Part shown: positions 2,326-15,453 of the stretch, piece after piece
Numbering within the stretch: position 1 is the first letter of the stretch
How the letters are laid out: each line of letters begins with the position of its first letter
The notes under the pieces: model-generated
Databases searched by the model: none
Told to the model about the DNA's origin: nothing
What the model saw: the letters and a program-made list of their open reading frames with translations, nothing else
Virus record (IMG/VR): IMGVR_UViG_2563366967_000006
Length of the DNA stretch: 39,711 bases
Source of the DNA: a virus
Lineage: Duplodnaviria > Heunggongvirae > Uroviricota > Caudoviricetes
Reading direction: 5' to 3' (one strand)
Position numbers and translations under genes: made by a program

Positions 2326-2356
2326 GCGAATAATAAAAAAGGAGCCTGTAGCTCCA
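2326..2356 (-). terminator. Putative intrinsic terminator (minus strand)
   Basis: Plus strand reads aataataaaaaaggagcctgtagctcc; on the minus strand this is a GGAGC/GCTCC hairpin followed by a T-run, just downstream of the 2378-2659 ORF. Confidence 0.4.
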
Positions 2357-3012: not shown

Positions 3013-3693
3013 TCATCGCCATTGCTCCCCAAATACAAAACCAATTTCAGCCAGTGCCTCGTCCATTTTTTCGATGAACTCCGGCACCATCTCGTCAAAA
3101 CTCGCCATGTACTTTTCATCCCGCTCAACCACGACATAATGCAGTCCTTCACGCTTCATACGCGGGTCATAGTTGGCAAAGTACCAGGCATCTTTTCGTG
3201 TTACCCACATGCTGTACTGCACCTGGGCCATGTAAGCCGACTTTATGGCCTCGAAACCACCGAGCCGGAACTTCATGAAATCCCGGGAGGTAAACGGGCA
3301 TTTCAGCTCAAGGCCATTGCCGTCACTGCATAAACCATCGGGAGAGCAGGCGGTGCGCATACTTTCGTCGCGATAGATGATCGGGGATTCAGTAACATTC
3401 ACGCCGGAAGTGAATTCAAACAGGGTTCTGGCGTCGTTCTCGTACTGTTTTCCCCAGGCCAGCGCCTTAGCATTAACTTCCGGAGCCACACCGGTGCAAA
3501 CCTCAGCCAGCAGGGTGTGGAAGTAGGACATTTTCATGTCAGGCCACTTCTTTCCGGAGCGGGGTTTTGCTATCACGTTGTGAACTTCTGAAGCGGTGAT
3601 GACGCCGAGCCGTAATTTGTGCCACGCATCATCCCCCTGTTCGACAGCTCTCACATCGATCCCGGTACGCTGCAGGATAATGTCCGGTGTCAT
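3013..3693 (-). CDS. exo: Lambda exonuclease (Red-alpha)
   Basis: 226-aa translation ([30 protein letters not shown]...) is near-identical to lambda Exo as I recall it. Confidence 0.95.
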
Positions 3694-4475
3694 GCTGCCA
3701 CCTTCTGCTCTGCGGCTTTCTGTTTCAGGAATCCAAGAGCTTTTACTGCTTCGGCCTGTGTCAGTTCTGACGATGCACGAATGTCGCGGCGAAATATCTG
3801 GGAACAGAGTGGCAATAAGTCGTCATCCCATGTTTTATCCAGGGCGATCAGCAGAGTGTTAATCTCCTGCATGGTTTCATCGTTAACCGGAGTGATGTCG
3901 CGTTCCGGCTGGCGTTCTGCAGTGTATGCAGTATTTTCGACAATGCGCTCGGCTTCATCCTTGTCATAGATACCAGCAAATCCGAAGGCCAGACGGGCAC
4001 ACTGAATCATGGCTTTATGCCGTAACATTCGTTTGGGATGCGACTGCCACGGCCCCGTGATTTCTCTGCCTTCGCGAGTTTTGAATGGTTCGCGGCGGCA
4101 TTCATCCATCCATTCGGTAACGCAGATCGGATGATTACGGTCCTTGCGGTAAATCCGGCATGTACAGGATTCATTGTCCTGTTCAAAGTCCATGCCGTCA
4201 AACTGCTGGTTTTCGTTGATGATGCGGGACCAGCCATCAACGCCCACCACCGGAACGATGCCGTTCTGCTTATCAGGGAAGGCGTAAATTTCTTTCGTCC
4301 ACGGATTAAGGCCGTATTGGTTGGCGACGATCAGCAATGCGATGAACTGCGCATCGCTGGCATCGCCTTTAAATGCTGTCTGGCGAAGAGTGGTGATCAG
4401 TTCCTGTGGGTCGACAGAATCCATGCCGACACGTTCAGCCAGCTTCCCTGCCAGCGTTGCGAGTGCTGTACTCAT
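3690..4475 (-). CDS. bet: Red-beta single-strand annealing protein
   Basis: 261-aa translation ([59 protein letters not shown]...) matches lambda Bet; overlaps exo by 4 nt. Confidence 0.95.
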
Positions 4476-4480
4476 CCGTT

Positions 4481-4777
4481 TTATACCTCTGAATCAATAT
4501 CAACCTGATGGTGAGCAATGGTTTCAACCATGTACCGGATGTGTTCTGCCATGCGCTCCTGAAACTCAACATCGTCATCAAACGCACGGGTAATGGCTTT
4601 TTTGCTGGCCCCGTGGCGTTGCAAATGATCGATGCATAGCGATTCAAACAGGTGCTGGGGCAGGCCTTTTTCCATGTCGTCTGCCAGTTCTGCCTCTTTC
4701 TCTTCACGGGCGATCTGCTGGTAGTGACGCGCCCAGCTTTGAGCCTCAAGACGATCCTGAATGTAATAAGCGTTCAT
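4481..4777 (-). CDS. gam: Gam, host RecBCD nuclease inhibitor
   Basis: 98-aa translation ([21 protein letters not shown]...[10 protein letters not shown]) matches the short form of lambda Gam. Confidence 0.9.
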
Positions 4778-4852
4778 GGCTGAACTCCTGAAAATGGCTG
4801 TGAAAATATCGCCCGCTAAATGCCAGGCTGATTAGGAAAACAGGAAAGGGGA

Positions 4853-5263
4853 TTAGTGATTCAGGCCGTTACCGCGTCCGTCGAGAAAAACTTCCACGAG
4901 CAAATCACGGGTATAAGTGCGCTCGATGCCGCGATGCAGATAAAGCCGTCCGCGTAAATTAGCTGATGCAGTCCAGGTACCATCTTTGTGTTTGACCAGC
5001 ATTCCTGGCATGACCGCACCTCGATTAACGGTCTGCGTTCCGTAATGTTGATGAACCATAAAAACTCCTGCCCGTAAGCTGGGCTGCTGAACATATAGAG
5101 ACTTCTGCGCGTATTCAGGCGGTGGATGGCCGCCGGTTGTCATAACTAAGCCGCCTCGTTGAAGCGACTGAGGTATGAGGTGTTGAGTTGATTTCAGCTG
5201 GTCACACCGACGTTCACACGTCCGTTTCACCCCTCGCACTCCCCGGAGCCTGCTGAAATTCAA
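4853..5263 (-). CDS. Hypothetical early-leftward protein; TTG start at 5263 or ATG start at about 5143 (96 aa)
   Basis: Only ORF between gam and the OL/PL-like operator cluster, where lambda carries kil-cIII-ral-N. The 5263 start is TTG; an in-frame ATG at about 5143 has a GAGG upstream. Arg-rich N-terminal extension. Confidence 0.35.
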   Translation of the reverse strand: MNFSRLRGVRGVKRTCERRCDQLKSTQHLIPQSLQRGGLVMTTGGHPPPEYAQKSLYVQQPSLRAGVFMVHQHYGTQTVNRGAVMPGMLVKHKDGTWTASANLRGRLYLHRGIERTYTRDLLVEVFLDGRGNGLNH

Positions 5264-5490
5264 GCTGCGGATCTAAGCGGTCATCGCAACGGTGAATCAG
5301 GTGGTTGCCGTATCGTTGTGTTGTTGCGATGAACTCATTTAAAACTATAGTTGTTTTACCGTCAACAACAAAAGTTGTTTCATTGGTTGTTTTAGATATA
5401 ACTGGTTGTATTTAGGATGGATTTATTTTGTGACTTGCATCGCATAGCGATAACTGAAGCGGGGGGTATGGTGGTTTTTTGAACGGTGTG
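5264..5490. promoter_or_regulatory. OL/PL-like operator-promoter cluster
   Basis: Several GGTTGT/ACAACC half-sites and inverted repeats (gttgtt...aacaac, aacaacaaaagttgtt, tggttgtt, ctggttgta), the same half-site as in the cI-cro intergenic region. Confidence 0.45.
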
Positions 5491-5499
5491 TGATGAGGG

Positions 5500-5528
5500 G
5501 AGGCAAAAGAAAACCCGGCACGACGGCC
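5500..5528 (-). terminator. Putative intrinsic terminator downstream of the membrane-protein gene
   Basis: Plus strand reads gcaaaagaaaacccggcacgacggccggg; on the minus strand this is a CCCGGC/GCCGGG hairpin followed by TTTTCTTTTG, directly after the stop at 5540. Confidence 0.5.
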
Positions 5529-5539
5529 GGGGAGGGGGG

Positions 5540-6046
5540 TCATTTTAATCTATCAAGGAGTGACTCTCTTTCCTTCTTCTCTGATTCTCTTCGGTTTAAT
5601 AACGCTTTAAACTCTTGAAGCTCAACCATTATTTTATGAACGAATACACTGGTATAGAGAGAAATAAAGAGTAATCCACCTGAAATTTTTAAGACCCTGA
5701 AGAGTAGGGCTTGATCATTTGTGCTTGCTATTAACCCCAAGATTACAAACAAAGTTGAAAATACATAGAAAGCTAATAATAAAACCAATTTCAGTCTCTT
5801 GGATTTGACTATTGGCACTAATCGCCTAACCTCACTAGGGGTTAAAGACGAGTGGTCATTGGCCTCATTTGCCTTAAAAATGGCTTGTATACAATATGAT
5901 AATGGCAATTGCATGAGTCCAACCACAGCCCACGGAGCAGTTAGGACAACACCCGGTGTAATATAGCCCAATGCTGACTTGAACAAAAAGTAACCAGCAA
6001 AATAGAAGACCAACATACCAATAAGGTGGATGATGTTCGATTTCAT
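5540..6046 (-). CDS. Unknown multi-pass membrane protein (168 aa, about 4 hydrophobic segments, charged C-terminal tail), second gene of the cassette in the rexB position
   Basis: Four long hydrophobic stretches followed by a charged tail (RRESEKKERESLLDRLK). Strong RBS (aaaaggaggg) 21 nt after the upstream gene's stop. AT-rich. Confidence 0.8.
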   Translation of the reverse strand: MKSNIIHLIGMLVFYFAGYFLFKSALGYITPGVVLTAPWAVVGLMQLPLSYCIQAIFKANEANDHSSLTPSEVRRLVPIVKSKRLKLVLLLAFYVFSTLFVILGLIASTNDQALLFRVLKISGGLLFISLYTSVFVHKIMVELQEFKALLNRRESEKKERESLLDRLK

Positions 6047-6067
6047 TATCGCCCTCCTTTTGGTAGG

Positions 6068-7090
6068 TTATTTTGCAACCAATTCTCCGGCATCAAGTTT
6101 TGAGAACAGCCACTTATGCATTTTTAAGAATAAATCATTTTCATCAATAATGCCATTGTTATATTCAACGCTAATTTTTCCGGATAATTTTATCTCTTTT
6201 CCCGTTATTTCCCCACCGCCTTGAAGTTTGATGCTAATATCATCCTCATCTAGATGTCGTAGTGAGGTAGCAATACTGTCTATAACAGCTTGACCGCTAT
6301 CATTTGTTTTTCTGAAGTATGTAATCTCGAGGCTTACTTGTAAATTGGCCTCATCTAATGAATCTTTAATGTTTATATCATTTGCCCAGTTATCGCCAAA
6401 AAATGCTTTTAGTAGCGCACCTCCTTTCCCTATTGGGCGGTATTTTATTGTCTTCACCGAACCATTTGAAAAGGAGGGTGTTTGGTTCTCTGAATTTTTA
6501 ACTTCTGAAGTAATGGGTAATCCACCAATTTTTATGCTCTTGGCTGGTGCTTTCTCCATTTTTTTCATCGTTTCTTCGGATGGCTTATCTTGAAGCATTA
6601 ACACAGATTCTTTTTCATCTGTGAATGTATTAATTAGCCAATTCAAATGCGCCTCAAGCTCCCTTGCTCGAAGCGATGTGGATTGAACGATCATGACATG
6701 GTTGTTTAGTACACCAAAATATAAAATTGAATCTACAAACTCTCTTTTTTTGTCACTACGTTTATCTCCATCAATAATTATATCATTAGACGTGATGGAG
6801 TTAATGTCATAAAATTTAACATTATCACTAAGCTCTAATAGAGACTGGCTTTTGTCTTTTTCAAATAAAACCAGTTGCCCAAAAAGTATAGTTTTGTATG
6901 TGTCGCTTTTATTTAAGAAACGATACCCCGAATTTTCATCTGAAGGTGTTATTTTTTCTTGTCTACTAAGTACTTTTTCTGCAACGCCGCCCTCACCTAT
7001 AATACTAAGTAGTATGTTTTGTAATGATGATTTGCTGTGTGGGATTACTGCTTTTTTATAATGAACGACTTTTTGTCTGTTATCTTTCAT
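6068..7090 (-). CDS. Unknown soluble protein (340 aa), first gene of the cassette in the rexA position
   Basis: ATG at 7090; immediately downstream of cI on the same strand. Lys/Asn/Ser-rich and AT-rich; no P-loop or nuclease motif seen by eye. Confidence 0.8.
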   Translation of the reverse strand: MKDNRQKVVHYKKAVIPHSKSSLQNILLSIIGEGGVAEKVLSRQEKITPSDENSGYRFLNKSDTYKTILFGQLVLFEKDKSQSLLELSDNVKFYDINSITSNDIIIDGDKRSDKKREFVDSILYFGVLNNHVMIVQSTSLRARELEAHLNWLINTFTDEKESVLMLQDKPSEETMKKMEKAPAKSIKIGGLPITSEVKNSENQTPSFSNGSVKTIKYRPIGKGGALLKAFFGDNWANDINIKDSLDEANLQVSLEITYFRKTNDSGQAVIDSIATSLRHLDEDDISIKLQGGGEITGKEIKLSGKISVEYNNGIIDENDLFLKMHKWLFSKLDAGELVAK

Positions 7091-7147
7091 TGCTATAGTC
7101 CAACTAGTATTGAATAAATAAACACAGTAAAGACATAAAAATTTCTT

Positions 7148-7177
7148 ATAGCTACCGATAACGTAATCGGTAGCTAT
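7148..7177. repeat. Perfect 12-bp inverted repeat with 6-nt spacer (atagctaccgat-aacgta-atcggtagctat)
   Basis: Read directly from the sequence between the cI stop (7213) and the 340-aa gene start (7090); on the minus strand a short T-run (AAGAAATTTTTATG) follows. Confidence 0.55.
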
Positions 7178-7212
7178 TACAAATCAACCAAAGGTAATTC
7201 TTTACATACTAC

Positions 7213-7902
7213 CTACCCATGCTTCCTGTAGGTCTGCGGCATGCTCCCAATAACTTTCCCGAAGATAAACACCCGGTTCATCTCGTCTTTCTCAATTGGG
7301 TCCCACGGCGAGTAGCTCTTGTTATCAGAGATAACCAGTAGCTTATCCTTCATCATTTGCAGGCGCTTTACATGGGCTGTGTCGTCGTACAGAAACGCAT
7401 AGATACCATCACCGTCGAAAGATTTAACTGTGATATCAACGAACAGCAGATCACCTGGTTCGATCGTTCCTGACATGCTGTCACCACGCACGTTAATGAT
7501 GCGGATATTTTCCGCCTTCCTACCATCGAACATGTGACGAGCATCGTCAAACGAGTACTCAACCGAGCGTAGAACTTCTACAAACTCACGGTTGATGACT
7601 CCCGGCCCAGCACTGACTTCTATATCAAGAACGTCAATCTTAAAGTATTTGGAATGGCTGACAGTTGATAGTATTGGTTGCACTGTACTGTCTGACATAT
7701 TTCCAACGCCAGAAGATAACCATTCTGCGCGCACACCCAAAGCGTTCGCGATCTCCACGATTTTAGTTGTTTGGTTAGCTTTCCCTGTTTCGATTTTCTG
7801 AATAGCAGCTTGGCTAACCCCGACCAAATCCCCAAGCGCCTTTTGTGTAAGGCCTCGCGCTAATCTGGCTTCTTTAAGTCTTTCTGAGAGTGTTGTTTTC
7901 AT
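7213..7902 (-). CDS. cI: CI-type prophage repressor (HTH plus S24/LexA-like peptidase)
   Basis: N-terminal HTH (LTQKALGDLVGVSQAAIQKIETGK) and C-terminal peptidase-like domain with GDSM. The likely start is the internal ATG at 7902 (MKTTLSERL...); the ORF track extends to 7968. Not lambda cI. Confidence 0.85.
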   Translation of the reverse strand: MKTTLSERLKEARLARGLTQKALGDLVGVSQAAIQKIETGKANQTTKIVEIANALGVRAEWLSSGVGNMSDSTVQPILSTVSHSKYFKIDVLDIEVSAGPGVINREFVEVLRSVEYSFDDARHMFDGRKAENIRIINVRGDSMSGTIEPGDLLFVDITVKSFDGDGIYAFLYDDTAHVKRLQMMKDKLLVISDNKSYSPWDPIEKDEMNRVFIFGKVIGSMPQTYRKHG

Positions 7903-8006
7903 AGTCCAAATGTACAACCAAGGTTTTATTCCATCAAACGAAAATGGTTGTTGACTAAAAACAACCATAGTTTTAATCTTGATTCAAATTAACCACGGAG
8001 GTTGTT
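7903..8006. promoter_or_regulatory. OR/PRM/PR-like divergent operator-promoter region
   Basis: Inverted repeat ATGGTTGTT-7 nt-AACAACCAT at 7944-7968 overlapping a TTGACT -35-like hexamer, plus further ACAACCA/GGTTGTT half-sites near 7914-7925 and 7990-8005; RBS ggagg before the cro-like start. Confidence 0.55.
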
Positions 8007-8237
8007 ATGAACCCAGCTATCAAAACAGCGATCAATATCGTTGGTTCACAAAAGAAACTGGGCGCTGCCTGCGAAGTTTCACAGCAGGCCGTCTATAAGT
8101 GGCTTCACAACAAAGCAAAGGTATCCCCTGAACATGTCGGCAGCATTGTTACGGCTACTGGTGGAGTAGTGAAGGCATACCAGATTCGCCCGGATCTTCC
8201 GAAGTTGTTTCCACACACCGAAAAGAACGCAGCTTAA
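8007..8237 (+). CDS. Cro-like HTH regulator
   Basis: 76-aa ORF divergent from cI with an HTH-like stretch (QKKLGAACEVSQQAVYKW). Confidence 0.7.
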   Translation: MNPAIKTAINIVGSQKKLGAACEVSQQAVYKWLHNKAKVSPEHVGSIVTATGGVVKAYQIRPDLPKLFPHTEKNAA

Positions 8238-8306
8238 ATTTCCATTTCACGCTCTTTAACAATAAGCAATCAACTTAACAGTCAATTCAAACTAAAGGAG
8301 TCAATT

Positions 8307-8846
8307 ATGCAACCACTTACATACCAACAGACTAGCGGATTTAGCCCGACTGCGGTGATAAATCGTTCTCAAACAAAACAGGTGCCAGGCCACGAAAAAA
8401 TCCGTGATGCCGTCCGCGCCTGGTCGGCTGAAGATAATCAGGATGTCGTTGCCACACTCATTGTGAATGAGTATCGGGAGCAGGGCGGCGGCGCCATCGA
8501 TTTCCCTGATGATGTCAGCCGTGCACGCCAGAAGCTGTTCCGCTTCCTCGATAACAAATTCGATTCTGAAAAATACCGAAATAACGTGCGTGAACTGACC
8601 CCGGCAATTCTGGCGGTACTACCGCTGGAATATCGCGGTTACCTGGTTGAGCAGGATAGCTTCATGGCTAGGTTGGCTGAAATGGAAAAGGAACTCAGTG
8701 AGGCAAAACAGGCTGTCATTCTCAACGCACCACGCCACCAGAAACTGAAGGAGATGAGTGAAGGTATTGTGTCGATGTTTCGTGTGGACCCGGATCTGGC
8801 TGGTCCATTGATGGCGATGGTTACCACCATGTTGGGGGCAATATGA
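8307..8846 (+). CDS. CII-position early regulatory protein, possibly YdaT-like
   Basis: 179-aa ORF between the cro-like gene and O; the family name is a tentative recollection (motif PAILAVLPLEYRGY). Confidence 0.55.
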   Translation: MQPLTYQQTSGFSPTAVINRSQTKQVPGHEKIRDAVRAWSAEDNQDVVATLIVNEYREQGGGAIDFPDDVSRARQKLFRFLDNKFDSEKYRNNVRELTPAILAVLPLEYRGYLVEQDSFMARLAEMEKELSEAKQAVILNAPRHQKLKEMSEGIVSMFRVDPDLAGPLMAMVTTMLGAI

Positions 8847-10572: not shown

Positions 10573-10650
10573 TATTTAGGGTTATAGGTCTTAGCCCATT
10601 TTAAATGGAAGGCAGACATGCAGCCATGCATACTTCGCATGGCAACATAA

Positions 10651-11079
10651 TTATTTAGACAAACTATCTAATTTTTGCGTCGCTTTTTGTGTTAGGTCGC
10701 TGTAACTGATAAACCCTACGTTAGCACCTACAATTAACACTAAGAACACTAAGCTGCATATGGATAGAGTGGCAGATTTATGCTTATGGAAAACAAAATA
10801 TGCTACTATTGCACTTAATATGAAGGAAATGAATAGAAATATAGATGTTGATGTTTTTAGATATTTTTCAGGAAATAATGGGTGAGCAATAATGTATACA
10901 AGATTAAGTAGTATATAAATTGCTACCGGAATGAAAATCATGCTCCAGTGTGTATCTTTTTTGGGAGGGATTGGCTGCAAATAATCAGACACCGTTTTTC
11001 CATCAGTTTCAAGAAGAATTACTAGATCTCTTACTTCACCACTGACTTGAGTGCCATCCTTAGTAGTAATGTTAATCAT
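10651..11079 (-). CDS. Unknown membrane protein (~142 aa, soluble N-terminal region plus about 3 hydrophobic segments)
   Basis: Start taken at the internal ATG 11079 (MINITTKDG...), which overlaps the upstream stop as ATGA, with a GGAGGG RBS. The track ORF extends to 11136. AT-rich. Confidence 0.6.
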   Translation of the reverse strand: MINITTKDGTQVSGEVRDLVILLETDGKTVSDYLQPIPPKKDTHWSMIFIPVAIYILLNLVYIIAHPLFPEKYLKTSTSIFLFISFILSAIVAYFVFHKHKSATLSICSLVFLVLIVGANVGFISYSDLTQKATQKLDSLSK

Positions 11080-11453
11080 TTTTTCCCTCCAAATACGATT
11101 CCCTCTACGTCTTTGGAAGCTTTTTGTGATGACCACTCCTCTGAATCAGGTGATTTAATTAAAAATATTGTATCTCCATCAAAAATCGTATTTGTTCCGT
11201 AAAAATTTACATTTGATAGATCACCACCAAAAACCCTCTGCCCACTCGAGGTAATTGCCTCACCTAATTTAGTAAAATTACCTGCAATAGATGATTTTCT
11301 TTTTCCACTTCTATTCAAAGTGGCTTTAATTACACCACCACCATCCTTAGAGTTAAATAATTGAATGTCCACTCCAGCAGTTGGTTGTATATATTTTGAA
11401 AGCTCTTTCTTGAACTTGTTAATATATTTATCTTTGTTTTCTTTGTTGGTCAT
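11076..11453 (-). CDS. Unknown small soluble protein (125 aa), first gene of the ren-position cassette
   Basis: ORF antisense to the early rightward operon; Gly/Ser/Lys-rich; no motif recognised. AT-rich. Confidence 0.6.
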   Translation of the reverse strand: MTNKENKDKYINKFKKELSKYIQPTAGVDIQLFNSKDGGGVIKATLNRSGKRKSSIAGNFTKLGEAITSSGQRVFGGDLSNVNFYGTNTIFDGDTIFLIKSPDSEEWSSQKASKDVEGIVFGGKK

Positions 11454-11720
11454 TGGTTAGATCCATAGTTCTGGCTGTGATTAGGTGAAAGTATACAAGG
11501 TTTTTAAAGCGAAGATCACTGTTTTGGCTTCAAGATAGTTTTGATTTATCGTAATCAATCCGCCATAATCCTCTCATCGGAGCCTGAACAACTCCGGTGA
11601 CTTCTGCGCATTTAAGGGGACTTAAATGCGACCACAATCTGAACTCATCACCTTGTCACAGATGCAGAAATGCACCTGCGATGTCTTGCATCCAGCGTTT
11701 GATCTCTGCGGAGGTGAAGC

Positions 11721-13125: not shown

Positions 13126-13210
13126 AGTCAGAGATAACAATCAACTAATACTGTTTTGTTGATTTTTGCTTGTAATTGGCGTTCTGGTCTGATTTTTGTG
13201 GAGTAAGTTG

Positions 13211-13594
13211 ATGCGTGATATTCAGATGGTTCTTGAGCGTTGGGGTGCGTGGGCGGCTAATAATCATGAAGATGTGACCTGGTCGTCCATTGCCGCCGGT
13301 TTTAAGGGATTAATTCCTTCAAAAGTAAAATCTCGCCCGCAATGTTGTGACGATGACGCGATGATCATTTGCGGGTGCATGGCCCGTCTGAAAAAGAACA
13401 ACAGCGATTTACACGATTTATTAGTAGATTATTATGTATGTGGTATGACATTCATGTCACTGGCAAGTAAGCATTGCTGCTCGGATGGTTATATCGGGAA
13501 AAGGTTACAGAAGGCTGAGGGCATAATTGAAGGGATGTTAATGGCATTAGATATCCGGTTAGATATGGATATCGTTGCTAATAATTCTAATTGA
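13211..13594 (+). CDS. Q: Late-gene antiterminator Q
   Basis: Translation [31 protein letters not shown]...[16 protein letters not shown] matches DLP12 QuuD-type Q as I recall it; the track ORF starts at 13196. Confidence 0.85.
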
Positions 13595-13782: not shown

Positions 13783-14865
13783 TTAGAACTGATAAACCAG
13801 ACCTACAGCGACGATGTCGTCGGTATCAATACCAGCTGTTTTGGTAAACTTACTATCGTCAATTAAGTTGATTTTGTAATCAACAAAAGTGGACATGTTT
13901 TTATTAAAGTAGTAAGTAGCACCGACATCGACATACTTGACTAAGTCTCGGTCACCATGAACACCAAGGTCTTTACCTTTTGACTGAAGGTAAGCAACAG
14001 ATGGACGCAGACCGAAGTCAAACTGATATTGTGCTACTGCTTCAAAGTTTTGTGCTTTGTTTGCAATATGGTTATTACCAAAAACGGTCATATTCTGAGT
14101 TTCAGAATATGTGGTAGCCAGATAGATATTGTTCGCATCATATTTCAGGCCTGCAGCCCATACTTCCGCATTTTTGCCGGAGGCATTGAATTTGCTCTTA
14201 CCATAGGCGACCTGACCGTCAGTGCGATCTGATTTAGCATAGGTTGCACCCACGCCGAATCCTTCATACTCATAAGTAGTGGAGAAACCGAAACCATCAC
14301 CATTGGCTTCAGTTACGTCAGTGCGGTCATTTTTACCCTGATACTGAGCAGCAAAGTTCAGGCCATCGACCAGACCAAAGAAGTCGTTGTTACGATAAGT
14401 TGCAACACCAGTAGTGCGACCAGTCATGAACACATCTGTTTGGGTCCAGGTATCACCACCGAATTCTGGCAGAACGTCAGTCCACGCACCGATGTCGTAT
14501 GCTACACCGTAGTTACGGCCGTAATCGATTGAGCCGTAATCACCAAATTTCAGGCCTGCAAATGCAAGACGGGTTTTGTCTTTGGAAGAACCTTGAGATT
14601 CAGCACGGTTGCCTTTGAATTCATATTCCCACTGACCGAAACCAGTCAGTTGATCGTTGATTTGGGTTTCACCTTTGAAGCCAAGACGGGCATAAGTAGT
14701 ATCACCATCATCTGCATCATTAGAGGAGAAGTAGTGCTTGGCATTAACTTTCCCGTATAGATCCAGCTTGTTACTGTCTTTATTATAAATTTCAGCTGCC
14801 TGAGCAGACATCGCCATCAGTACTGATGCAGCTACAGCAGAAATTGCCACTGTTAATTTTTTCAT
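13783..14865 (-). CDS. nmpC: OmpC-family porin (NmpC-like moron)
   Basis: Signal peptide [23 protein letters not shown] then AEIYNKD...; C-terminal VGLVYQF beta-barrel signature. Start taken at internal ATG 14865; the track ORF runs to 14925. Confidence 0.85.
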
Positions 14866-15453
14866 TGTACGCCCTTTTTTTGAACTATTATTAAAAAATG
14901 ATGTCACTGCGCGATAAATATTCATCTAATCAATGTGATTATTTCAAGATGTAAGTTTTAGTTTCTCATTTAATTTGTGAAGTAGATCTCTATTTTTATC
15001 GGAACCTTTTCTATCTAATCCTATTCATGGCTCTTGTCTGAACAAAAATAAATCTATTAGCTAATTTATATTAATGGCACTTATTTATAAGTGCTCTATA
15101 ATTCTTTAGCTTAATTTAAACAAACTAAAAATAACATCGGAAATTATTAACTGGTTATTTGTTGAAGTTTTCTTATGCATTTGTGGTGGTGTTTTGAACA
15201 CTCGGTGGCATTCTCACAAATATCATTTAGTAGTTTACGTACGTAAAAAATTGGTTATGCTGTTAAGAGTGGTTACTTCGTCACACAGCTTAAACCCGCC
15301 GTCGAGCGGGTTTTTCCATTTTTTGAGTCTCGATATTAGCTGATAACCCAATACCTGAGTTATTCACTGACTCCGAATCTGTTACGTTTCTGCCTTTATT
15401 GCGATACGTAGTATCCCCTTAATTTACACCCGCTTTGTCTGCGAGGTGGGGTT

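Follow-up and report, generated by a model that had tools for sequence, protein, structure and literature searches.

A phi80-type Kil protein as the probable first product of the PL operon in a lambdoid prophage without a recognisable N antiterminator

Introduction

In lambda, about 2350 bp separate the start of gam from the start of PL, and this interval holds kil, cIII, ea10, ral, orf28, sieB and N. In the prophage analysed here (a stretch of 39,711 nucleotides, referred to as the window) the corresponding distance is 553 bp, and a single ORF lies between gam (4481-4777, minus strand) and the OL/PL cluster (about 5337-5400). A preliminary description of the sequence had already remarked on this one-ORF arrangement, and our map agrees with it. 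The same description treated the ORF as unknown, read it either from a TTG codon as a 136-aa product (4853-5263, minus strand) with an Arg-rich N-terminal extension abutting the operators or as a 96-aa product from an ATG near 5143, saw no N gene, and offered two explanations: either leftward early transcription does not depend on N, or the ORF encodes a divergent N-like or Kil-like factor. We asked what this ORF encodes, where its translation starts, and what the DNA around it suggests about early transcription from PL.

Results

The ORF downstream of PL encodes a Kil protein

Profile searches of the ORF returned Kil families and no N family. PHROG 294 ('Kil protein for bacterial septation inhibition') matched with an E-value of 2.5e-38 over profile positions 4-80 of 83, and on the 136-aa reading the match was confined to residues 60-136. 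The corresponding 68-aa product (kil, 4853-5059 including the stop codon, minus strand) aligned over residues 1-68 with positions 1-70 of 73 of the NCBIfam profile NF008465 ('FtsZ inhibitor protein', E 1.8e-17), and by BLASTP it is 41% identical to phi80 Kil (E 5e-16). The Kil proteins of phi80 and HK225 have 69 and 68 residues, respectively. Homologs carry PF27398 in precomputed Pfam assignments and the NCBI name 'cell division inhibitor protein', relatives occur in 146 phage records, and identical proteins are annotated as Kil in phages PhiR47_2, PhiR26_1 and Perceval. The Kil-like option was therefore the correct one, and the ORF is not an unknown: it belongs with Rac KilR and phi80 Kil among the cell-division inhibitors, and is an ordinary gene annotated before in relatives.

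The NF008465 score of the window protein (63.1 bits) lies under the curated NCBI cut-off for the KilR subfamily (92 bits), so by the NCBI rule its sequence makes it a family relative and not a KilR-subfamily equivalog, and its targets may differ from those of KilR. Rac KilR (73 aa, 'inhibitor of FtsZ') and phi80 Kil (69 aa) nevertheless resemble it in family (the PHROG included), in size and in genomic position: all are encoded in the leftward early operon, ahead of the recombination genes. An AlphaFold2 model predicts an all-beta fold with six strands for the window Kil (mean pLDDT 83.6, only one of five models confident); KilR is described as a small (about 68-73 aa), beta-rich or all-beta protein with short unstructured ends (PMC12482147). 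The best fold match in BFVD, a 73-aa Pantoea phage protein (TM 0.73, 38% identity, E 1.5e-3), adds little. Rac KilR is toxic, causing filamentation via FtsZ (and MreB), and FtsZ overproduction rescues the cells (PMC12482147, PMC5793797); by analogy, the window Kil would block cell division. Lambda Kil, a 47-aa ZipA-dependent FtsZ inhibitor, gave no BLASTP alignment with it at E ≤ 100, and the two are unrelated in sequence.

The kil start codon and the Arg-rich extension

The ATG at 5059 is preceded, 5 nt upstream, by a Shine-Dalgarno sequence AGGAG (5069-5065). This lies in the kil-proximal leader (5060-5117, minus strand), which is conserved more strongly than any other part of the region (pi 0.0066), has no third-position excess and is kept at a locus where everything upstream of 5117 is missing (L074). 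Conservation of kil across genera begins exactly at the residues MVHQHYG. The real start is evidently the ATG at 5059, giving 68 residues. The TTG at 5263 has no Shine-Dalgarno sequence before it, no profile match covers residues 1-59 of the 136-aa reading, and the extension has no homolog beyond near-identical sequences, other genera having different DNA upstream of kil. Its frame is uninterrupted in 49 of 83 relatives, as it is in the window; an in-frame TAG (C5170T) or frameshifting 1- or 5-nt indels (at 5192, 5234 and 5260) close it in 33 of the 83, the plaque-forming PhiR34_1 among them. The Arg-rich extension is thus an artefact: it arises when the kil frame is read back from the real start into a G+C-rich leader. 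The ORF is also not adjacent to the operators, since some 70 nt separate the TTG from the -10 hexamer, and the ATG at 5059 lies about 270 nt past the predicted transcript start.

The alternative ATG (5143-5141) is in frame, as had been pointed out, and kept in 82 of the 83 relatives; gene callers mostly predict the 96-aa product from it (cluster P0002, 472 members), and for these reasons a longer Kil isoform may exist. This ATG sits in the outer stem of a conserved RNA hairpin, and it is as one arm of that hairpin that it is conserved. We also considered whether the conservation reflects a leader peptide (MTTGGHPPP, including a PPP stalling motif) and rejected this: variants with a 5-nt deletion encode another peptide and one locus lacks an ATG, which places the conservation at the RNA level. 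Annotation of the gene varies in related phages, where it appears as a 139-aa protein, as a 77-aa ORF in an alternative frame or as a 'membrane carboxypeptidase'. In place of these, and of the 136-aa reading, we recommend the annotation kil (68 aa, 4853-5059).

Promoter, operators and leader

The PL promoter as read from the sequence (5337-5365, minus strand) consists of a -35 hexamer TTGACG (5365-5360), a 17-nt spacer and a -10 hexamer TTAAAT (5342-5337), and its transcript would start at about the purine 5330. PR matches this layout (TTGACT-17-TAATCT, 7951-7979), and the operator within the spacer is shared as well. The OL cluster (5339-5400) contains sites of the type AAAACAAC...GTTGTTTT, and the site at 5339-5357 overlaps the -10 hexamer. 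This site and 7958-7976 in the cI-cro interval are 95% identical over 19 nt, and 5361-5383 pairs with 7933-7955 in the inverted and direct repeat families; cI would be expected to bind the OL sites. On the 5' side of the long ORF the DNA is non-coding as far as the terminator of the immunity operon (cI-340aa-168aa), which lies upstream of PL (5514-5531, minus strand; CCCGGCCGUCGUGCCGGG then UUUUCUUUU; -12.1 kcal/mol, z -2.8), next to the 168-aa gene (5540-6046). In lambda, too, the immunity operon next to PL/OL is closed by a terminator.

About 270 nt of untranslated leader separate PL from kil. Its group-specific 5' part (5179-5330, minus strand) is non-coding, contains the TTG at 5263 together with the Arg-rich reading, is 95-100% conserved and was found in 2211 of the 5426 complete genomes of E. 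coli. Between phages that differ in their immunity region, similarity sets in at 5330/5329, and three immunity types are fused to the leader precisely at the predicted +1; relatives with the two other types have a different sigma-70 promoter, whose -10 hexamer also ends exactly 7 nt before the conserved TCGCAAC / TTGCA. An nhmmer search found no homolog of 5181-5331 in other genera. The segment 5179-5330 tolerates a TAG, a 5-nt insertion and 1-nt indels, and its diversity (pi 0.032-0.035) compares with 0.046-0.052 at the third codon positions of kil and gam. In contrast to synonymous sites, 5060-5178 is far more conserved, and it has no codon periodicity.

As a single RNA the leader is not unusually stable (z -0.7; core 5179-5295, z -0.4). 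RNAalifold applied to 43 distinct E. coli leaders found only one-sided, wobble-preserving changes, a divergence too small to prove a structure for 5179-5330; all seven common polymorphisms at predicted paired positions retain pairing, and the 5'-terminal stem is present in all three immunity types. Two stretches with an excess of C over G (5330-5253 and 5200-5110; C/G 1.6-1.75) are at about the 95th percentile of the operon. The leader has no similarity to the Rac KilS sRNA, which lies upstream of kilR. A 15-nt match between the PL (5269-5255) and PR (8228-8242) transcripts was rejected as a shared nut-like element: part of it is the cro stop codon, it is invariably linked to this cro, and Perceval lacks it despite the same leader; about 0.7 such matches are expected by chance in a 4 kb x 4 kb comparison.

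A covarying hairpin upstream of kil

The kil-proximal leader is preceded by a module of two hairpins (5118-5177). Hairpin A, or the CATACC hairpin (5141-5177, minus strand), consists of CAUACC, a 6-bp covarying stem, the loop UUCAACGAG and GUUAUG, and scores 87.8 bits in the window with a covariance model (R2). Across 12 loci all six inner pairs change on both sides; the covariation score is 0.50, compared with 0.19 in shuffled alignments (none of 500 reached 0.50) and 0.05-0.09 with slid partners. The hairpin folds at -11 to -14 kcal/mol in the window, lambda, phi80 and HK639. Hairpin B (5118-5134, minus strand; GGCGG-CCAUCCA-CCGCC) is conserved in sequence in HK225, phi80, HK639 and eight other Enterobacteriaceae loci, and its stem shows no covariation. 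The HK639 record, where a T-run follows, annotates it as a terminator; the window lacks the T-run. Both hairpins recur in the PL operons of HK225, phi80, HK639 and HK022-like phages, and hairpin A directly precedes a ribosome-binding site in lambda (cIII), HK225 (kil) and HK639 (gene 43). Lambda has hairpin A without hairpin B, 19 nt upstream of the cIII ATG.

On the other side of kil, the kil-gam spacer (4778-4852, minus strand) contains a weak hairpin at 4811-4828 (-11.3 kcal/mol, z -1.07, poor T-run). The spacer is the left mosaic joint to lambda-type phages: in phages with a lambda-type kil, the match to the window (98% identity) stops at about 4859.

Searches for N, nut and put

No recognisable N was found, in agreement with the preliminary description. 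PHROG, Pfam and NCBIfam scans of the ORF and the other small ORFs of the PL operon contained no N family; tblastn of the window with phi80 N, lambda N and HK022 Nun gave only noise; Rfam at E ≤ 10 gave two chance matches between 4000 and 9500; and a scan of the whole window for Arg-rich ORFs returned NinE and off-frame readings. The curated Perceval record and the PhiR34_1 record list no N either. The search of the PL leader for nut elements, suggested earlier, found no boxA within three mismatches and no boxB-type hairpin.

The sole exact match to the consensus boxA in the window, CGCTCTTTAACAA (8250-8262, plus strand), lies in the PR transcript, between cro (stop codon 8235-8237) and a cII-like gene (start 8307), and it differs from the rrn boxA at the first base only. 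As judged from the sequence, the signal expected of an rrn-type, boxA-only Nus-factor system, a consensus boxA in the transcript, would thus be available to PR and not to PL. The boxA accompanies this cro in every relative that has it. Perceval, with the same leader and a different immunity type, has no such boxA. The sequence reveals no boxB-like stem-loop beside the boxA of the window.

A put covariance model (R1), built from five putL and five putR sequences and, with only 8 base pairs, mainly a test of sequence, scored the HK022 controls at 88 and 84 bits. In the window the best score was at most 9 bits, and none of the matches lay within 5060-5330 or 8238-8306. The 'putL-like RNA' of HK639 is related to put and unlike the window leader.

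Terminators of the PL operon

No intrinsic terminator was found between PL and orf61, and therefore kil-gam-bet-exo would not require N. Going leftward from PL, the first good intrinsic terminator (2341-2355, minus strand; GGAGCUACAGGCUCC then UUUUUUAUUA) sits after the orf61 homolog and before a traR-like gene, xis and int. It is kept in 67 of 70 assessable relatives, and lambda has the identical 21-mer, likewise downstream of orf61. In lambda, only N-modified polymerase is known to read through this terminator. Its retention argues that some read-through device, or another promoter, would still be needed for xis and int, and its conservation hints at an antitermination device of the group, not detected here. 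Literature searches found no study of the expression of xis/int or other distal genes after induction in the N-less group; on Perceval, the PhiR phages or N-less lambdoids, only a remark on phage LLS was found.

Comparison with related phages

Perceval (OV696612, Bievrevirus), PhiR34_1, PhiR5_1, PhiR47_2, 4A7, Lambda_4C10 and Turner are 92-97% identical to the window over 4700-5600, with the same order of PL, leader, kil and gam, and with Kil annotated, in Perceval with the note 'phage phi80 Kil homolog'. Unlike the window, Perceval has another immunity region, and PhiR34_1 lacks the 340-aa/168-aa insert. The genes gam-bet-exo-orf60a-orf63-orf61 are homologous to those of lambda, which also shares the terminator after orf61 and the CATACC hairpin; however, the early-left region of the window is about 1.8 kb shorter and lacks N, nutL, ral, sieB, ea10 and cIII. 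HK022 and HK639 have no N gene either, and HK639 also shares a 68-aa annotated Kil and the hairpin A/B module in the PL operon, but both phages carry a put RNA just downstream of PL, with a second copy downstream of PR in HK022. Their leaders are unrelated in sequence to that of the window. In the window kil follows PL as the first gene, and neither N, sieB, an sRNA nor a terminator comes between them, whereas the Rac kil gene is preceded by the KilS sRNA with a terminator, and that of phi80 by N plus tL1A/tL1B.

Discussion

The early-left region of the window is very probably the start of the PL operon of an N-less lambdoid prophage, with Kil as its first gene. When cI leaves the OL sites, RNA polymerase would start at about 5330 and produce a non-coding leader, of which the 150-nt group-specific segment comes first and the hairpin module follows. 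Ribosomes would initiate at the ATG at 5059, behind the strong AGGAG, and the 68-aa Kil, if it acts as KilR does, would block the FtsZ ring, and possibly MreB, so that induced cells form filaments. Transcription would continue into gam-bet-exo-orf60a/63/61 and would proceed without an N protein or nutL, since neither exists and the stretch holds no terminator. The sequence is thus consistent with the first of the two explanations offered earlier, in which leftward early transcription is independent of N.

Of the readings that give the leader or the long ORF another role, the one in which the 136-aa TTG ORF is real, either as an N-Kil fusion or as a divergent N whose target hairpin lies in its own leader, is extremely unlikely. 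In its favour, 49 of the 83 relatives have an uninterrupted frame, as does the window, and the segment KRTCERRCDQL bears a loose resemblance to the xRRxERRxxxx pattern of the Arg-rich motifs of lambda, P22 and phi21. However, the Arg-rich stretch lies upstream of the real start and is interrupted by a TAG or a frameshift in 33 relatives, a plaque-forming phage among them, while the TTG has no Shine-Dalgarno sequence, residues 1-59 match no profile, other genera have no homolog of the extension, and the leader offers neither a boxB-type hairpin nor a boxA within three mismatches. For practical purposes this reading, and with it the N-like option of the preliminary description, is refuted. The leader could instead be a cis-acting antiterminator RNA, analogous and unrelated to put, that carries PL transcripts past 2341-2355 to xis and int without N, its active part being 5179-5330, the hairpin module 5118-5177, or both. 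Such an RNA would account for a phage that has no N and yet retains, in 67 of 70 relatives, a terminator identical to that of lambda. The leader begins exactly at +1, travels with three immunity modules, is placed like putL just downstream of PL (PMC9378689), has its 5'-terminal stem in all three types and keeps pairing in seven of seven common polymorphisms; the covariation in hairpin A is real, and a put-like mechanism has been raised by Casjens and co-workers for the N-less lambdoid LLS (PMC12315714). On the other hand, neither the put covariance model nor Rfam matches the leader, the PR operon has no second copy, and the 150-nt segment is barely above neutral proxies in conservation, tolerates a 5-nt insertion and 1-nt indels, folds no better than shuffled sequences (z -0.4 to -0.7) and lacks compensatory pairs. 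The hairpin module, moreover, also occurs where N (phi80) or put (HK639, HK022-like phages) is present, in most cases past tL1-type terminators, and lambda has hairpin A alone, just before cIII; an intercistronic element therefore fits this distribution better than an antiterminator. We consider an antiterminator role of the leader improbable.

A tentative reading, to which we give more weight than to an antiterminator and still less than an even chance, is that the leader is a regulatory 5' UTR that curbs the toxic Kil. Rho would load on the C-rich stretches and end leaky PL transcripts in the lysogen, and the hairpin module would control the translation of the next cistron or the processing of its RNA, as has been proposed upstream of lambda cIII. 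The two C-over-G stretches and some 270 nt without translation are in line with this, and NusG/Rho-dependent termination silences Rac kilR (PMC5793797). In Rac, phi80, HK225, HK639 and phiES15, kil lies behind terminators or an sRNA; the strong, non-periodic conservation of 5060-5178 and the position of the hairpin directly before ribosome-binding sites in lambda, HK225 and HK639 point the same way. Composition alone, however, does not show a rut site, Rho-dependent terminators are not predictable, and strong attenuation would be costly, since kil heads an operon whose gam, bet and exo must be expressed. A regulatory 5' UTR is compatible with, rather than opposed to, the explanation of the region as the start of an N-less PL operon headed by kil.

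The phage belongs to a very common group without an N antiterminator: about 40% of complete E. coli genomes contain the PL-leader-kil module without an N gene, with the lambda PL-operon terminator kept. If the leader did act as an antiterminator RNA, it would account for the retention of the lambda terminator downstream of orf61 by phages that lost N, and as the leader is small and sharply bounded, the question of read-through is directly testable with reporter fusions. The covarying hairpin common to lambda, phi80, HK022-like phages and HK639 is a candidate for a conserved regulatory or recombination-linker element of lambdoid early-left operons.

Gene content of the early-left region

The window is a lambdoid prophage. 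From its left end it carries int (1-1143), xis and small PL-operon genes, then the minus-strand genes exo (3013-3693), bet (3690-4475) and gam (4481-4777), the ORF under discussion (4853-5263) and an intrinsic terminator (5514-5531). Further right lie genes for a LexA-type cI (7213-7968), a YdaS-like cro (8007-8237) and a YdaT-like 'cII' (8307-8846), then O, P and the nin region, and a Q-like antiterminator (13196-13594). The gene map bore out the preliminary description: a single ORF separates gam from the operator/promoter cluster. Gam and PL are 553 bp apart here, versus about 2350 bp in lambda, where the interval holds kil, cIII, ea10, ral, orf28, sieB and N.

The suggestion that this ORF encodes a Kil-like factor was confirmed. 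PHROG 294, 'Kil protein for bacterial septation inhibition', is matched by residues 60-136 of the ORF (E 2.5e-38), and the 68-aa C-terminal part aligns from its residue 1 to the NCBIfam Rac KilR model 'FtsZ inhibitor protein' (E 1.8e-17), with a score of 63 bits that lies under the curated cut-off of 92. The 68-aa product shares 85% identity with HK225 Kil (68 aa) and 41% with phi80 Kil (69 aa), whereas lambda Kil (47 aa) is unrelated. A database search with the ORF returned the Kil family alone (precomputed Pfam PF27398; NCBI name 'cell division inhibitor protein'). Identical proteins are labelled 'Kil' in several sequenced phages, and the record of Perceval, a published phage with the same layout, notes a 'phage phi80 Kil homolog'. 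AlphaFold predicted a small six-stranded beta protein (pLDDT 83.6; one of five models confident), in agreement with the small beta fold reported for KilR (PMC12482147).

Annotation of kil is inconsistent across PV340559, OM475428/30, KT630649 and OV696612 (window 4861-5094, minus strand), the variants including an alternative-frame 77-aa ORF, a 'membrane carboxypeptidase' and a 139-aa 'Kil'; in SEN34 a 'homing endonuclease' ORF overlaps the kil start. In the Rac prophage of E. coli K-12, kilR is immediately preceded by an annotated sRNA, KilS, which has a terminator of its own (L127, 4406-4503), and Cronobacter phage phiES15 has a KilS-like sequence before kil (L088, about 3330-3470); none was found in the window.

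Translation start of kil

AGGAG precedes the ATG at 5059 with a spacing of 5 nt, and across genera conservation starts exactly at MVHQHYG, the upstream sequence being different. The upstream reading was surveyed in 83 loci (80 IMG/VR loci with identical Kil, Perceval, the published phage PhiR34_1 and the window). In only 49 of them does the kil frame run unbroken from the TTG at 5263; in 33 it is closed, either by C5170T, which creates a TAG, or, where an indel is responsible, by a 5-nt insertion at 5192. Indels of 1 nt occur in single loci, an insertion at 5234 and a deletion at 5260. PhiR34_1 (recorded host E. coli MG1655) carries the in-frame TAG. The one remaining locus, L074, differs upstream of kil, where it lacks both the leader and an equivalent of the ATG at 5143. 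The Arg-rich N-terminal extension described earlier thus does not hold as protein, the frame being closed in 33/83 loci; the extension is noncoding. We regard an N-like ARM protein as virtually excluded.

The ATG at 5143, kept in 82/83 loci, yields the 96-aa product favoured by gene callers. Since 5060-5143 has no third-position excess and this ATG forms one arm of a conserved RNA hairpin, 5059 was taken as the start; judged from sequence, a 96-aa isoform may nevertheless be made.

Absence of N and distribution of terminators

As the preliminary description had stated, N is unrecognisable. Family scans of ORF residues 1-59 and of every other small early ORF gave no match, phi80 N, HK022 Nun and lambda N as tblastn queries gave none, and a search for Arg-rich early ORFs returned only off-frame readings and NinE. 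The early region was likewise empty in a search for HK022-type put, the N-independent antiterminator RNA (controls 84-88 bits). No convincing intrinsic terminator was found from PL to the orf61 homolog, the hairpin at 4811-4828 being weak as a terminator; kil, gam, bet and exo should therefore be expressed without N. A good terminator first appears in the PL operon after the orf61 homolog (2341-2355, minus strand); 67 of 70 N-less relatives retain it, and PL transcripts would have to pass it to reach xis/int. Lambda has an identical terminator (GGAGCTACAGGCTCCTTTTTT) downstream of orf61.

On the PR side, a boxA of exact consensus (CGCTCTTTAACAA; 8250-8262, plus strand) stands downstream of cro and ahead of the YdaT-like cII gene; no boxB hairpin accompanies it. 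It belongs to the immunity module and travels with its cro; Perceval lacks it. Through this boxA the PR transcript could be bound by the host Nus factor complex. The PR-Q interval holds only weak terminator-like sites, which together with a boxA lacking boxB fits, but does not show, rrn-like, boxA-only shielding from Rho. The stretch from P to the NinB homolog (10573-11720) contains two minus-strand ORFs (PHROG 16940 and 18061), which would leave about 1.1 kb of the PR transcript untranslated and open to Rho action.

PL and its leader

PL was read from the sequence as TTGACG (5365-5360, minus strand), a 17-nt spacer and TTAAAT (5342-5337), the spacer carrying the same 19-bp operator as that of PR. 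Three immunity types occur among the relatives, and the sigma-70 promoter differs from type to type. Homology to the window sets in at (A/G)TCGCAAC, 7 nt past the end of the -10 hexamer, in the two main types; in the third a similar ATTGCA start follows the promoter, and uninterrupted homology resumes at about 5295. These joints point to a transcript start at 5330 and to a leader exchanged as a whole unit. Of 5426 complete E. coli genomes, 2211 carry the 5' 150 nt of the leader (5179-5330), as do 16 Escherichia phage records; no homolog turned up in 25 Kil-bearing loci of other genera. The segment tolerates indels and is only slightly less diverse (pi 0.033) than synonymous sites (0.046-0.052). 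Its folding stability is unremarkable, with no compensatory pairs, and only the 5'-terminal stem of the leader is kept across all three immunity types.

A conserved hairpin module upstream of kil

Homologs of 5064-5180 occur in HK225, phi80, HK639, two HK022-like contigs and eight loci of further genera (Citrobacter, Scandinavium, Siccibacter, Huaxiibacter and others). The module (5118-5177, minus strand) consists of CAUACC, a locus-variable 6-bp stem, the loop UUYAC(N)GAG, GUUAUG(AC) and GGCGG-CYAUCCA-CCGCC. In the first hairpin all six inner pairs are changed on both sides; its covariation score is 0.50 versus 0.19 in column shuffles (0/500 as high) and 0.05-0.09 with slid partners. With the outer CAUA/UAUG arms, which lengthen the stem, folding energies in four phages are -11 to -14 kcal/mol. 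This hairpin, absent from Rfam, is common to PL operons of many lambdoid phages, often followed by the second; lambda and HK022 have the first alone, in lambda 19 nt upstream of the cIII start codon. Copies lie at 2675-2722 in lambda (L126), 3492-3556 in phi80 (L002), 3865-3930 in HK225 (L003) and 5110-5174 in HK639 (L129), and one contig (L098) carries two in a single PL operon (5783-5847 and 6289-6341). The module usually stands right after a tL1-type intrinsic terminator and before the next RBS, whereas in the window PL and the 150-nt segment take the terminator's place. A peptide reading (MTTGGHPPP...) was rejected, as the peptide is not conserved. In our reading the module may act between cistrons as an RNA element for processing or for control of translation, or else serve as a recombination linker; we do not take it for a nut or put site.

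Accessory genes

Between cI and PL, at the lambda rexA/rexB position, lies a two-gene insert (5540-7090, minus strand) encoding a soluble 340-aa protein (6068-7090; PHROG 3482) and a 168-aa protein (5540-6046; PHROG 16807), the latter read as a membrane protein following the annotation of its homolog in Perceval. PADLOC matched neither. Perceval has the insert and PhiR34_1 lacks it, which makes it a candidate exclusion/defence module. A palindrome with 22-nt arms (86% complementary, no spacer) lies at 7141-7184, between the cI stop and the 340-aa gene start. Just downstream of Q, on the opposite strand, a 380-aa ORF (13783-14925, minus strand) matches the position of a gene annotated OmpD in the closely related PhiR34_1. 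It resembles a lysogenic-conversion gene placed between Q and the lysis genes. Next comes a strong terminator, probably tR', on the strand of the late transcript (15292-15313, plus strand).

Expression of the PL operon

On sequence evidence, the best supported reading, which we consider highly probable, is that PL would transcribe a non-coding leader, a 68-aa KilR-type division inhibitor and gam-bet-exo, the whole series independently of N. A compatible refinement, possible but clearly less secure, is that the leader keeps toxic Kil in check, both by Rho loading and by means of the hairpin module; the presence of two C>G bubbles in the leader and the silencing of Rac kilR by NusG/Rho (PMC5793797) speak for it. 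That the leader is a new antiterminator RNA is an improbable minority reading; for the N-less lambdoid phage LLS, Casjens and co-workers suggested a put-like mechanism (PMC12315714). N-less early-left operons occur also in Salmonella phage SEN34, Klebsiella phages RCIP0034 and ST101-KPC2phi6.1 and Cronobacter phage phiES15.

The finding is real yet ordinary: the gene is a known one, already annotated in phages that are nearly identical, and lambdoids lacking N have been recognised before. What remains of interest is the terminator read-through that a very common prophage group would need, and the covarying hairpin common to the window and lambda.
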